Shown here piece by piece: positions 2,926-55,337 of a stretch of DNA of 64,000 nucleotides; the stretch's first letter is position 1; the number at the start of each line of letters is the position of its first letter. A model generated the notes under the pieces. That model was not told where the DNA came from and made no database searches. It saw only the letters and a list, made by a program, of their open reading frames with translations. A program made the translations under genes and the position numbers. The stretch lies in contig OZ024743.1 of the NCBI GenBank assembly GCA_964016885.1, positions 82,460,001 to 82,524,000 on the forward strand, written 5' to 3'. This stretch comes from Eledone cirrhosa. Its lineage: Eukaryota.

Positions 2926-3090
2926 GAAACGAGTAGGACCCCGACGGCTGAGCTCAAGAATTAGCCGTCGAAACGGCTTGAGCTCAGCCGTCGGGGTCCT
3001 ACACGTTCCTATTACCCACTCTACTACCCTAAGTATTGAGTACATTGGTGCGTTATGGTCCATCTGGTTCCTTACCACATTCCCTTCGTT
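2926..3090 (+). mobile_element. (TA)n-embedded fold-back element, family C
   Basis: Inverted arms GTAGGACCCCGACGGCTGAGCTCAAG / CTTGAGCTCAGCCGTCGGGGTCCTAC, plus tail CACTCTACTACCCTAAGTATTGAGTAC; (TA)n on both sides; homologs elsewhere in the window. Confidence 0.85.
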
Positions 3091-3137
3091 ATATATATAT
3101 ATATATATATATATATATATATATATATATATATATA

Positions 3138-3369
3138 TTAAAATACAAATATTAATAAAATAGATGTTCATTTGATCAATAACATTTTATTATACATATT
3201 TCAGAGGTACAACAGTACGTCCTCATCAGACAAAATATAATGATACATGACATACCCTGAGATGTTAAATGGTTAAGATTTAATCAAGGTATTTTTTACT
3301 GTAGAGTGCTTCCAATCTACTGTAAAACTCATTCTTTGATGTACTCATTGAATCTTGTTTAACTCTTTA
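3138..3369. mobile_element. (TA)n-embedded element, family D (Penelope-pLTR-like), one arm plus tail
   Basis: Similar to the left arm and tail of 60458-60885 (GTAGAGTGCTT..AATCTA.TGTAAAACT); flanked by (TA)n. Confidence 0.75.
3184..3236 (-). ncRNA. Minimal type-I hammerhead ribozyme motif
   Basis: Minus strand: ATTTTGT-CTGATGA-GGACGTACTGTTGTACCTCT-GAAA-TATGTA-TA-ATAAAAT. Stem I 7 bp with one G-U; near-palindromic short stem III. Confidence 0.75.
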
Positions 3370-3652
3370 ATATATATATATATATATATATATATATATA
3401 TATATATATATATATATATATATATATATATATGGTAATATCGATATTTTCCACATCTGTCAACATCTCTCACGTAAACAATGAAGCGGCAACTGATGTT
3501 GATATCAACTGTATTAATATTATAATAATCATTTAAGGTGGCTCCAATGTAACAACAGATGACACTAGCTGTTGACATGAATATAATGATGGGGAGACTG
3601 TACAGCACAGATAATAGATGTCTACCTTATTAATCCAATTATCAACGTATTG

Positions 3653-3843
3653 GGGGATTGGCAGAATCGGTAGAAAGTCGGACGCCATGCTTTGCAGCAT
3701 AGAGTTACGCCCCTTTATGGTCTGAGTTCAAATCCCGCTGAGGTTCACTTTGCCTTTTATCCTTACGGAGGTCGATAAAATAAAGTACCAGTAATACACT
3801 GGGATAATTGCTGGCCTTGTGCCAAAAGTAGAAACAATTATTA
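3653..3843 (+). mobile_element. SINE family A
   Basis: A box, B box, core and GAAACAATTA tail as in the other copies. Confidence 0.9.
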
Positions 3844-3956
3844 GTAAGTGATGGTGTGTGGCCTTGTGTTTAGGGCTTTTCGCCCACGAACATAAGAAAT
3901 ATAAAAATAGTGCCTCACTAAAATGGTAGACAGAGGCAGAGGCAATAAACAAGGTC

Positions 3957-4294
3957 TACTCCTGGGTCTCTTATAATCGCCCCCACACCAGCACCCGTTT
4001 ATCACATTTTACTAATATCTCTCCGGCGAAATTTTATTTTAAGTAGCAGCATTCCTACGACGATTAATTTTCTTTATACAGTAAAAAACATCACACATGA
4101 CAAAAAGAGTACCTTACTAGGAATTCCATGTTATAAAATAAACAGAATGGGTTGAGGTCTCAATATGTAAACTAAACAACTAATTCTGTTTTTTTTTTAA
4201 AGTTAACGAAGACAACATAAAAAGATTACCGACCCCCACCTCGTTTATTCCCCCCGTTTATGCCACAAACTCTATTATTTGTGACCCGAGAGTA
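3957..4294. mobile_element. Putative TA-flanked MITE
   Basis: Imperfect terminal inverted repeats TACTCCTGGGTCTC vs (revcomp) TACTCTCGGGTCAC; internal CCCGTTTAT subterminal motifs. Confidence 0.5.
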
Positions 4295-4470
4295 GGTAAC
4301 GTCCCCCTTATTATTTGTGACCCGAGAGTAGGTAACGTCGCCTATTATTTGTGACCCGAGAGTAGGTAACGTCCCCTATTATTTGTGACCCGAGAGTAAG
4401 TAACGTCCCCTATTATTTGTAACCCGAGAGTAAGTAACATCCCCTATTATTTGTGACCCGAGAGTAAGTA
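4272..4470. repeat. ~33-bp minisatellite x6 (CTATTATTTGTGACCCGAGAGTAGGTAACGTCC)
   Basis: Tandem units; the unit includes the right TIR of the adjacent putative MITE. Confidence 0.9.
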
Positions 4471-51580: not shown

Positions 51581-51627
51581 CCTGTTACGCGCGTTTCGCA
51601 GAGGATTGACTCAAGGTCACCAATAGG
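51581..51627 (-). ncRNA. Degenerate hammerhead-like motif
   Basis: Minus strand: CCTAT-TGGTGA..C-GAAA-CGCGCG-TA-ACAGG, then AATAAA; palindromic stem III ACGCGCGT but a mutated core. Confidence 0.35.
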
Positions 51628-52061
51628 AGTTATTGACCCGACTCCACTATCGATCTGCTCTTTAGACTGGCGATGTGACAACAAATATAGCGTTTTTATA
51701 ATGTATAGCTGGTGTATTTTTGTTTCCTCACAAACAGCTTTTATTGCTGAACGAAACAATATTTTTATCAATTATATTCTTCATAATTTATAGAAATCTC
51801 TCATCTTTAGAAGATTGGATTTTTATTGTTTTCTTTTCTGGTTTGGAGTTATTCTTGTTTTAAGTAATAAGACTAACAATAGTTATTTGTATTCACACAT
51901 CAATACGTTCAGAAATAAGCAGTTCGTTTTCATATGTATGTGTGTACATCCATGTGTATGTGTATATCTGTACGTTTAAGGGCGTTCAGATATAGAGACA
52001 ACGAGGCATATATATATATATATATATATATATATATATATATATATATATATATATATAT

Positions 52062-52392
52062 ATATCACAAAGAAACGGAGAATCAGTGGTGCGACGAATT
52101 AAAATTTATTAGACATATTACAATCGTCTTTCTGGCGACCAGATCGAGGCACGATCGATGCGATGATCGAACTTGACTCTGAAATCGCAAGATCCTCAGA
52201 TACGTCTCGATTCTTCGAAGCAGAGTTTCCAAATGTCAGTTAATTGGACAACCATTGTAATATGTCTAATAAATTTTAATCCGTCGCACCACTGATTCTC
52301 CGTTTCTTTGTGATATTATACTCTGCTCTGTAAGAGCATCGAGTGCTCAAACGGCCTACCGCATACGGACGCTTTAAGCAACCCACACCAAT
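52062..52392 (+). mobile_element. (TA)n-embedded fold-back element, family G
   Basis: ~62-bp near-perfect arms 52062-52123 / 52254-52315, 130-bp loop, tail TACTCTGCTCTGTAAGAGCATCGAGTGCTC. Confidence 0.8.
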
Positions 52393-53604
52393 TATATATA
52401 TATATATATATATATATATATATATATATATATATATATATCGAATGTAGAAAGGTAACACACGAGTATAATATATATATAAAACAAATAGTAGAAAGGA
52501 ATATATAGTTAAATTGTTATATGCTTGATTAATGCAAAATATGACGGAAAAAAATAGTAGACAGATCAGCCTACGGGAATGGACTCACACATCTATAGTA
52601 TGTTGGAGACCTGCTTTTACCATTGCACCAAGACTATCTGACATCTCGTCACCGTCACTCTAGAGTACGTAAATAGCTACCGAAAGACTTTGCAATTGTG
52701 TACCTCCACTAATATCACACAAATTTCGTTATTAAGGCAACAGCTTCTTAATCGCCAATGTACACACAAACACACACATACACACACACATAATTACATA
52801 CACATATACACACATACACACATAATTACACAACAGCATGTATAAAAATAAAACCTTGTCCCCTGACAACTTACAAATCCTCAACGTTCTGAGAGATAGC
52901 AATCTTTAAAGTTATGTACACATTTATCACTCGCTCTCCCTCTCTTTCACCATATATATATATATATATATATATATATATATATATATATATATATATA
53001 TATATATATATATATATATATATATATATATACATATATACATATATATATATATATATATATATATATATATATATATATATATATATATATACATATA
53101 TACATATATATATACATATATAGTGTTTGTGTTTGTTATTACATCCACATGTATTAGTAAGTATTACTGCTGTTAAAAGATCTAATGTATATATAATTTC
53201 CTGGTGCCACTATTAATAGATGGAATTAGAAGATATGTTAGAAATGGTAGCAATGGTATCAGCTGGTGGTTTGTGTTGTTGTTATTGGTGGTGGTGGGGG
53301 GTTATAAATGGTAGCAATGGTATCAGCTGGTTGTTGTTGTTGGAACTCCGAGATATACTTTCCAAGGTTACTCAGTAAAAATGTTGGTAAGTCAGTGCAT
53401 TGCATTGATTTATGGCTATTGGGGGGAGGGGGCAGTTTATATAATTACGGTTTAGATTGACTGTAGCAATATTATATGCGGTTCTGTCATATGTCTATTG
53501 TAAATTATATATATATCTGTATATGTATGTCAACACACACACACACACACACACACACACACACACACACACACACACACATATATATATATATATATAA
53601 GAGA

Positions 53605-53935
53605 GTATTGAAGTTTTCTTGAAGCATTGTGGAATAATAAAAAAAATGTTCGTTTTGGGAGCCTCAACAATGCAGATGGGTAAATCTCCGGGTAACAGAA
53701 TCCGGTGGTGAAGAGAGAGATGTAAGGGAATGTAGAATGAGACGTATAGTGTGTAGAGGAACGTAGGAAAAATAAAAATAACAACACGAGATAGAGTTAT
53801 CTTGGGAGAGATTTAATTGTCCCTATATTTCGGATTCGCATCCATCAACTGGGGGGTTTTCCGGGGGGGGGGGGGTTATTTGTCGGAAAGGAACGGTACG
53901 TGGCCCCTGTTGTCCGCTGTTTGTGTGTAACTGAG
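53605..53935. mobile_element. Family H single-arm copy
   Basis: Shares TTGAAGCATTGTGGAATA..CAATGCAGATGGGTAAATCTCCGGGTAACA with 8157-8230; TA-flanked. Confidence 0.8.
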
Positions 53936-54111
53936 GTATTATATATATATATATATATATATATATATATATATATATATATATAAACACTTGCATGAAA
54001 AAATCAGATATTTTTTAAAAACTGTGAAAACTATTGCAATATGTTCCACATGTGATTAGAACCCGCAACGTCAGGAGTGAAATTATAGGATTGCAAATAT
54101 CATGTCAGCAG

Positions 54112-54386
54112 CAGTAGTAGTAGTAGTAGTAGTAGTAGTAGTAGTAGTAGTAGTAGTAGTAGTAGTAGTAGTAGTAGTAGTAGTGGTCTGTTTCTGTCTC
54201 TCTTGAAAATACCAACCTTATTACTATCTTCTAACTACTACTACTACTACTACTACTACTACTACTACTACTACTACTACTACTACTATAACTACTACAA
54301 CTATAACTACTACAACTATAACTACTACTACTATAACTACTACTACAACAACTACTACTACTACTATAACTATTACTACTACTACT
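54112..54386. repeat. Inverted microsatellite pair (TAG)n / (CTA)n
   Basis: 54112-54184 and 54232-54386 are complementary, with a ~48-bp spacer. Confidence 0.9.
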
Positions 54387-55337
54387 ATTTTTTCATTTTG
54401 TTTCGTTTTCTTGCTTTTGTTTCTTCTTTATTAATCTTGTTTTTGTTTTTGTTGTTAATGTTACTCTCCCTCCACCTCCTCCTCACCGCTTCTCCCTCCC
54501 CCTCCTTCCTTACCGCTTCTGCCTCCTCCTCCACCTCCTCATCACTTCCTCCTCTTTCATCACCACTTCTCCCCCCTCCTCTGTGTTGACAATAGGTTTA
54601 CGTCCATTGATCTCTTATCAAAACACTCTCAGCTAATTGATTTCTTTCTATCGAGATCGATACCTTAACAGCTATTTATTTATCTGGCAACATCGATTAA
54701 GACTTGACAGCACTCACACATATACACACAAACATATACACACATCCATTCATACCTACACATACATACACACACAAACATACCTACCCATATATCCATA
54801 CCTACACACACACAACAGTGTCGTGTTGACAGTCGTTAGAACATCAGAGGCAATGTTTTCTGGTTCAAATTCCTCCAAGATCAAATTTGGTTTTCATCAT
54901 TTCCAGGTCGATAAATAAAGTTCCATGTTAGTACAGAGCAGCGCCCCCCCCCCCTCTCTCTCAGAAACCATTGTTCATGTTGGCCCATCTACGACCCCGT
55001 TGGAAGTTAGGGCCGAAAGATATATTTTCATTTTTTTCTTTCTTAGTCCATTTCTTCTTCCACCGACTTTCGTTGAAGCTCTAACGTCCGAAACGTTAAG
55101 AATCTTTTCCTACTACGTTAAACTGATATCTTTGTATTGTTATCCCGTCTATTTATGATATGTTATGATATGTTATAAAGAGTCGGGGCCCATACTCTAC
55201 TACCCCAGGTATCGAGTACTCTGTTGAGCAATGATCTAACTAGTTTAAAACTGGTTCAATCCTGAAATGATATACGATATATATATATATATATATATAT
55301 ATATATATATATATATATATATATATATATATATTCA

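Follow-up and report, generated by a model that had tools for sequence, protein, structure and literature searches.

The closest described relatives of the insertions reported here are the Hydra clade of Penelope-like elements (PLEs) with a C-terminal endonuclease (EN+), which includes Hydra-1_Obim of Octopus bimaculoides (Craig et al. 2021, PMC8557442). This clade is characterized by RWK, DKT, CxCx5C, CxxC and CxH motifs, by the lack of a CCHH motif, by a hammerhead in the pseudo-long terminal repeat (pLTR) and by (TA)n targets. In Poseidon PAc of Anolis carolinensis, both target strands were cut and extended in vitro, and the reverse transcriptase (RT) used two adjacent internal start sites on the RNA, which bound the tail (Frangieh et al. 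2024, PMC11167929). Non-LTR (long terminal repeat) retrozymes, in turn, are short non-coding hammerhead-related derivatives of PLE pLTRs, organized as head-to-tail tandem units with whole ribozymes (bioRxiv 10.64898/2026.07.22.740005). In this study, we analysed a window of 64,000 nucleotides (nt) of the Eledone cirrhosa genome (assembly GCA_964016885.1, contig OZ024743.1, positions 82,460,001 to 82,524,000), in which short fold-back insertions, here called stubs, lie at (TA)n runs. They are likely head-to-head, severely 5′-truncated ends of Hydra-clade PLEs, and the ends of these insertions mostly lie just before one or the other of two predicted tandem hairpins in the leader of their parents.

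The stubs share a motif that an earlier note on this DNA had described as ACTCTRC, one base and GTATYGAGTRC. All the sites it listed are present in the window, each at most 1–2 nt from where it had been placed. The one-base spacer proved wrong, since the real one is 4–9 nt long and no match with 1–3 nt exists in the window. Family G has GCATCGAGTGC, and the right half was hence generalised from GTATYGAGTRC to GYATYGAGTRC. With this correction, ACTCTRC-N4-12-GYATYGAGTRC gave 64,920 exact matches genome-wide (3.0 Gb) against none for the reversed control. The claimed enrichment near the (TA)n junction was borne out in an evenly spaced genome sample of 590 kb (59 of 60 requested stretches), in which 9 of 11 full motifs lay 40–49 nt before a TA run. 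In the same sample, 66/291 GAGTRC hexamers lay 30–79 nt before a TA run, compared with 20/407, 8/233, 16/270, 11/347 and 17/361 for five control hexamers. Tails of the D type are longer, extending about 55–63 nt beyond the box. The reduced motif attributed to family D is correct for the copy at 3301, which lacks the ACTC half because its tailed arm begins at the box, but not for that at 60813, which keeps this half (60796). An Rfam scan of the window and the parent leader did not reveal any ribozyme or hairpin family, only microsatellite-driven microRNA matches below threshold.

The motif is predicted to fold into a bulged hairpin (RCTC-stem-2-nt bulge-GAGY-RCT), in which ACTC pairs with GAGT, TAC/GTA swaps to TGC/GCA and the 2-nt bulge stands ahead of the box. 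The parents carry a tandem pair of such hairpins, spaced 71–96 nt depending on the family, after the pLTR hammerhead and ahead of the ATG, and the motif of the stubs is the first of them (hairpin 1). In the parent of family C, hairpin 2 (GCTC...TA-GAGC-ACT) starts 6 nt beyond the point at which the tail ends, and it was therefore used as a predicted signature to locate other parents. In family G, the predicted hairpin 2 was followed by an ATG and a Hydra-type open reading frame (ORF) at three loci (L210, L211 and L220); an earlier pattern with a GAGYAC box had given no matches because the G box is GAGCGC. In family D, one of two pattern matches (L226) showed the predicted hairpin 2, the ATG and a Hydra-type ORF, and the pattern for family E had six matches, one of them a parent, and led to 25 loci running into the ORF start. 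The order in the parents is 3′ untranslated region (UTR), hammerhead motif, hairpin 1, 50–70 nt, hairpin 2, ATG and RT/GIY-YIG ORF.

Parents were sought with an endonuclease-piece query, which gave 51,157 first-look candidates, of which 150 were scored. RT and GIY-YIG fragments were found upstream of the motif in 2 of the first 30 pattern matches, and 7 of 10 stretches around long frames of family C contained the arm, the motif and the ORF start in that order. The C parents had open frames of 784–819 codons in six loci and 703 in one, and the C parent protein consists of 717 amino acids from the first M. In full-length C copies the motif comes immediately behind the 5′ pLTR and precedes the first ATG by about 165 nt; the "tail" of a stub therefore represents the first part of the element body, and not, as had been expected, a site at the 3′ end of an autonomous ORF. 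Families C, D, E and G each run on into their own Hydra-type ORF, the parent segments of G, D and E having 28–57% identity to the C protein over the matched parts, so the view that these families are unrelated cannot be maintained. The window itself contains no Hydra-type RT/GIY-YIG ORF. Five motif copies of a family C array were spaced 3542–3543 bp apart. A head-to-tail array of 3542-bp units with a tailed end was noted at C1:91,473,000–91,490,000 (L121, L122), four units of which have open frames of 784–786 codons; it fits copying from circular or multimeric RNA.

With respect to the protein, the C parent has YRDDG at 348, VIY/YIG at 591/606, RLRWRTF at 35–41 (mostly RmRWkaf in its relatives) and HSDKTGN at 115–121, that is, DKT and not DKG. 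The RWK-type motif of the G and D parents is RMRWRAF or RMRWLAF. In the C parent, to which the remaining checks are confined as the D, E and G loci end earlier, the CxCx5C linker is CNCPDRSIC at 572, CNLCSEE is found at 670 and CKH after N689, and there is no cysteine pair of the CCHH type between VIY and YIG. The C protein model (predicted local distance difference test, pLDDT, 92.7; 109 sequences) had telomerase RTs as top fold matches (E about 1e-7), the ORF matched no family in the Pfam scan and nothing in the PDB sequence search, and 2,067 of 7,995 scored database sequences were relatives at E up to 1e-20. The arms of the stubs correspond to the 3′ portion of a type I hammerhead motif, whose core and stems I–III are readable by eye in the C, D, E and G pLTRs. 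Hammerheads tolerate U3/A8 in place of C3/G8, and this replacement is found in that of family C, in which stem II also contains a loop of about 40 nt (L127:3055–3165), the place where many C stubs are truncated. Copies of a further family, J (L090, L135 and L180), have CAGAAGA instead of CTGAAGA as hammerhead core and may, judging from this sequence, be inactive.

The single ORF with RT and C-terminal GIY-YIG, the same motif set, the pLTR hammerhead and the (TA)n targets are those of the Hydra clade (PMC8557442), and on the basis of motifs and structure the carrier is almost certainly a Hydra-clade PLE. The earlier idea of a microsatellite-targeting PLE was therefore right, since the parents encode RT/GIY-YIG and insert at (TA)n. 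Among the PF01541-matching (Neptune/Poseidon-like) elements of this genome, the motif was present in 0/30 between GIY-YIG and the first TA run and in 0/7 near the 5′ end of the longest frames, whose true 5′ ends are unconfirmed. Neptune/Poseidon-like elements are abundant here (L061–L090, L131), include one 938-codon frame and end at (TA)n without a hairpin.

The ends of the insertions were recorded in the window and in 242 loci of the same genome, covering five families, with offsets counted from the first alternating base. Among 309 junctions with a TA run, 140 lay within 14 nt before hairpin 1, 153 within the same distance before hairpin 2 and 16 elsewhere. On this point the earlier note was right: a signal in cis stands at a constant spacing from the junction, 293/309 ends being at most 14 nt, and mostly 6–9 nt, before a hairpin. 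The modes were −8 and −6 in C, −7 and −6 in G, −9 and −9 in D, and −6 or −10 and −6 in J. Untailed ends stop just before hairpin 1 and tailed ends just before hairpin 2; this position tracks the hairpins although the tails range from 71 to 96 nt and the distance from hammerhead to end varies by family. When 119 head-to-head pairs were classified, 96 joined a tailed to an untailed end, none had two tailed ends, two had both ends untailed and 21 remained unclassified.

The lengths of the arms were also compared. In 67 pairs, the untailed arm was longer in 22, the tailed one in 11 and both were equal in 34, and at L123–L125 a whole unit is present in the untailed arm and absent from the tailed one. 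These data rule out fold-back copying of the tailed arm as the sole route, and the two arms are therefore likely two separate complementary DNAs (cDNAs). The stem-I string was common to both arms in 10/16 pairs (slightly different in the other six) and in 19/240 cross-comparisons; consequently, both arms likely come from a single RNA or source locus.

The copies identified in the window were as follows.
2923–3089, plus strand: family C stub between two (TA)n runs, 92% identity over 142 nt to the C parent (L127); untailed inverted arm at 2923–2958, direct arm equal to the 3′ half of the parent hammerhead, 78-nt tail.
3018–3043, plus strand: hairpin 1 of family C, ACTC-TAC...GTA-TT-GAGT-AC.
3138–3369, plus strand: family D stub, 83% and 96% identity to the D parent (L226); untailed inverted arm with a minus-strand hammerhead core (3229), short tailed arm beginning at the 3′ box of hairpin 1 (3301–3310).
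13813–14014, plus strand: family C fold-back stub, hairpin 1 at 13943–13969.
16097–16290, plus strand: tailed family J fold-back stub, 88–90% identity to the J parent region in L090; decayed hairpin 1 with box GAGCCC, missing from the earlier list.
17286–17433, plus strand: family C fold-back stub, hairpin 1 at 17362–17388.
19505–19662, minus strand: stub of a C-like subfamily, hairpin 1 at 19578–19552.
21512–21707, plus strand: family E fold-back stub, matching the E parent (L237) at 77% identity over 132 nt; hammerhead core at 21569, hairpin 1 at 21638–21659.
21763–21940, plus strand: C-like fold-back, hairpin 1 collapsed to ACTC-GAGTACT (21886–21896).
39874–40064, minus strand: family C fold-back stub, hairpin 1 at 39945–39919.
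40095–40283, minus strand: family C fold-back stub, hairpin 1 at 40167–40141; with the preceding stub it forms a local tandem duplication (222-bp period, 99% match).
46860–47092, minus strand: D-like stub, parent linked in part only (L155); 3′ box at 46910–46904 on a short tailed arm, hammerhead core at 46993 on the plus strand.
49340–49530, minus strand: family E-like fold-back stub, matching the E parent at 74% identity over 101 nt; hammerhead core at 49480, hairpin 1 at 49407–49385.
52066–52392, plus strand: family G fold-back stub, matching the G parent (L210) at 80–84% identity; inverted arm with a minus-strand hammerhead core (52199), hairpin 1 at 52320–52347.
55180–55268, plus strand: C-like tail with a short arm remnant, 77% identity over 52 nt to the C tail; hairpin 1 at 55194–55220.
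60249–60349, unstranded: family J stub, 97–100% identity to L090; a tailed-end piece (minus) joined to an untailed end (plus).
60458–60882, plus strand: D-like fold-back, 74–75% identity to the D parent; one hammerhead core per arm (60565 minus, 60683 plus), hairpin 1 at 60796–60823.

No parent has been confirmed for the three C-like copies (19554, 21890 and 55193) or for the D-like one at 46904. At 55193, which had been listed as a family C fold-back, the motif exists but a short palindromic remnant takes the place of the long arms; directly upstream, at 55060–55110, there is a decayed minimal hammerhead-like stretch that is apparently the end of a separate element. Two C-like tails facing each other across a single (TA)n run form a long palindrome at 19386–19561. 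Further TA-flanked stubs with hairpin-type boxes were seen at 40322–40744 (box 40402, minus; hammerhead core 40630) and 59824–60194 (box 59898, minus), and they likely represent more Hydra families. In addition, the window contains long minisatellite arrays at 27757–30934 and 33508–37782, with units of 40 and 64 bp, and two stretches, 21070–21459 (minus) and 19697–20164 (plus), which we take to resemble restriction-like endonuclease domains of non-LTR retrotransposons.

The twin hairpins are also found in other organisms. Boxes were sought in the 170 nt before the ORF in the 41 of 77 metagenome loci that matched the N-terminus (six locus pairs of the set being >80% alike): 25 had two boxes, 8 had one and 8 had none, whereas two boxes appeared in 1/456 control ORF windows and 4/8,200 shuffles. 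The first upper pair was Watson-Crick in 49/51 hairpins at bulge 2 (36 C-G and 13 T-A) and in 1, 2 and 8 of 51 at bulges 0, 1 and 3, respectively. On a tree of 30 ORFs, 20 of them labelled, this pair of hairpin 1 needs four switches, at least three of which are forced by well-supported branches. The loop varies from about 2 to 25 nt. In L281 and L282 both hairpins have TCTC/GAGA and not GCTC/GAGC, a compensatory change of the lower stem. The 3′ copy was examined in 36 loci, 12 of which combined a leader with boxes and a match that ended within the contig; nine of these 12 true 3′ ends stop 0–12 nt before a hairpin, and in the remaining three the end enters the next unit, the match ends early, or the leader is single-hairpin (L275).

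Among the published consensus sequences available in PMC8557442, the hairpin is visible by eye in those of coral, sea cucumber and copepod Hydra elements: Hydra-1_Ajap opens with two hairpins, Hydra-2_Ajap and Hydra-2_Amil end with one, Hydra-1_Crog and Hydra-1_Amil have looser versions, and Hydra-1_Obim shows no clear box. The tandem hairpins, visible in these consensi, are mentioned neither in the available text nor in the searched supplement, where hairpin or stem-loop had no term matches. No published description of tandem hairpins in Hydra elements was found within our coverage, which excluded subscription papers and Repbase reports, and the RNA fold figures S1–S2 of PMC11167929 may bear on the novelty of the pair.

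In attention to the above, each hairpin probably docks the RT so that copying starts a few bases upstream, with binding predicted at the RNA level from the sequence pattern. We give about even weight to the further idea that this docking hairpin is duplicated clade-wide so that its two copies load two RT-endonucleases, which would prime both (TA)n strands. The GIY-YIG domain would cut both strands of (TA)n; on an RNA template that would be tandem or circular, one target 3′ end would prime ahead of hairpin 2 and the second ahead of hairpin 1, aided by a match of 2–3 nt of UA with the target. Synthesis of both cDNAs would usually halt early, in C frequently within hammerhead stem II, and the two would then be joined, giving a fold-back with one tail. 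The tail would be the stretch between the two RT starts and would therefore carry hairpin 1. By analogy, the two starts proposed here agree with the pair that was mapped in vitro for the Poseidon RT.

Several observations weigh against this interpretation. Hairpin 2 of family E is cut to a 4-bp stem (GCAC/GTGC) without bulge, yet E forms tailed ends, and its ends are more scattered, 11/45 lying elsewhere and making up most of the 16 such ends. In minimum-energy folds, the G and D leaders show hairpin 1 and the C leader shows neither of the two, and G-U versus A-C pairs number 6 vs. 2 in the metagenome set and 10 vs. 10 in this genome. It must be noted that 29 loci behind the 96 pairs with one tail had been chosen as best matches to a complete copy, leaving 67 unique pairs without them, and that the genome lists contain one pair with two tailed ends (C1:4.72 Mb). 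The ends lie at TA-rich triplets, and microhomology alone could help to fix them. Among the metagenome loci, 16/41 have no box or one (some begin too near the ORF, and two carry the TCTC/GAGA variant), and L275 looks like a one-hairpin family with its end 32 nt past the hairpin start. Finally, unlike the elements described here, Poseidon PAc starts inside the ORF, at an AC-rich stem-loop without target homology (PMC11167929).

The alternative that survives best, although we consider it unlikely, places the boxes at the DNA level: the GIY-YIG protein would bind the inverted repeat in cDNA or donor and nick at a fixed distance, trimming the ends and making the tail. The invariant GAGCAC/GAGTRC bases and the fixed offset speak for it and bring to mind ruler-type GIY-YIG enzymes, and the wobble-pair counts single out no strand. 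The Penelope endonuclease of Drosophila virilis needed tail sequence to cut plasmid DNA (PMC11167929), and the tail was put down to endonuclease-mediated resolution in PMC8557442. However, hairpin 2 lies outside the tailed insertions, so that its action would be confined to the template or to an intermediate not yet trimmed, the variable loop and the covarying upper pair suit base pairing and not a duplex of fixed spacing, and Poseidon ends coincide directly with RT starts (PMC11167929).

It is rather improbable that the hairpins have a function in the translation, stability or transcription of a leader cut by the ribozyme, with ends falling nearby through UA-(TA)n pairing only. The position of hairpin 2, which in 25 metagenome loci precedes the ORF start by 19–71 nt, would suit such a role; junctions share at least 2–3 nt with TA, and E retains its tailed end in spite of a reduced hairpin 2. 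Nevertheless, other TA-rich triplets in leaders and 3′UTRs are unused, nearly all ends lie before a hairpin, and the end modes are narrow at whatever hairpin spacing.

The earlier note had regarded the fold-backs as a non-autonomous guild depending on a single machinery; this reading, in which the families would propagate themselves with a common enzyme acting in trans, is now very doubtful. In its favour, the conservation of the signal would allow cross-recognition, the stubs are numerous (27,475 C tails terminate in TA vs. 326 continuing to hairpin 2) and some centre junctions recur among the best matches. Against this, each family has its own ORF, and 29 unselected C fold-backs had 28 distinct centre junctions, the sole repeat being the local duplicate 39868/40090 (family C being the one in which junction diversity was checked). 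A fixed internal structure in many copies, the trait of a non-autonomous family or retrozyme, was not seen in the C pairs. Furthermore, the stubs lack hairpin 2, which each tailed end would need under the model, and an internally deleted G unit with the hammerhead region and both hairpins in tandem (L216, C4:73.13 Mb) is single-copy. The stubs are thus likely dead on arrival, and cross-mobilisation between families may occur. Terminal inverted repeat (TIR) DNA transposons, either miniature inverted-repeat transposable elements (MITEs) or Foldback, or Helitron-like elements with a subterminal hairpin can practically be dismissed: TA-flanked inverted arms and a 3′ hairpin recall them, but the arms are the 3′ half of a hammerhead and run into RT/GIY-YIG ORFs, and the ends are asymmetric, one with a tail beyond the arm, so that an origin from TIR transposons with TA target-site duplications, named beforehand as the outcome that would overturn the PLE reading, finds no support. 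Crypton, Helitron and MITE origins were dropped on finding the RT parents, no search having been aimed at those proteins.

Like the Hydra elements of PMC8557442, those of E. cirrhosa form partial tandems and inverted 5′-truncated copies with a one-sided tail; they differ in tail length (71–96 nt here vs. 30–40 bp), in unit length (3.5 kb vs. under 3 kb) and in the tens of thousands of stubs. With Poseidon PAc they share a start region at the pLTR-ORF junction past the hammerhead. In PAc the protein-binding motif is only bracketed, within the first 172 nt, whereas here the starts lie in the 5′ leader, each ahead of a repeated covarying hairpin (PMC11167929). Unlike the non-LTR retrozymes (bioRxiv 10.64898/2026.07.22.740005), the stubs are head-to-head, often have half a ribozyme and show no evidence of amplifying themselves.

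In the telomerase template-boundary element and in hepadnavirus epsilon, a stem-loop of the RNA next to the template positions the reverse transcriptase. Unlike these, the two copies described here would set two starts for target-primed integration. The element class and the insertion scar were already known, and what appears to be new, within the literature covered, is the conserved twin-hairpin signal bounding the tail. How PLEs choose their RT starts and obtain a one-sided tail is addressed by an in vitro study that mapped the starts and not the RNA signal; the short repeated hairpin predicts both ends to a few bases and is open to direct mutation. In this genome, tens of thousands of small fold-backs, missed by Pfam and Rfam, are reclassed as truncation products of the Hydra clade. 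If true, the model would supply the sequence rule that underlies the Penelope "tail" and the inverted pLTR, together with a 25-nt portable tag for setting internal start sites for a telomerase-like reverse transcriptase.

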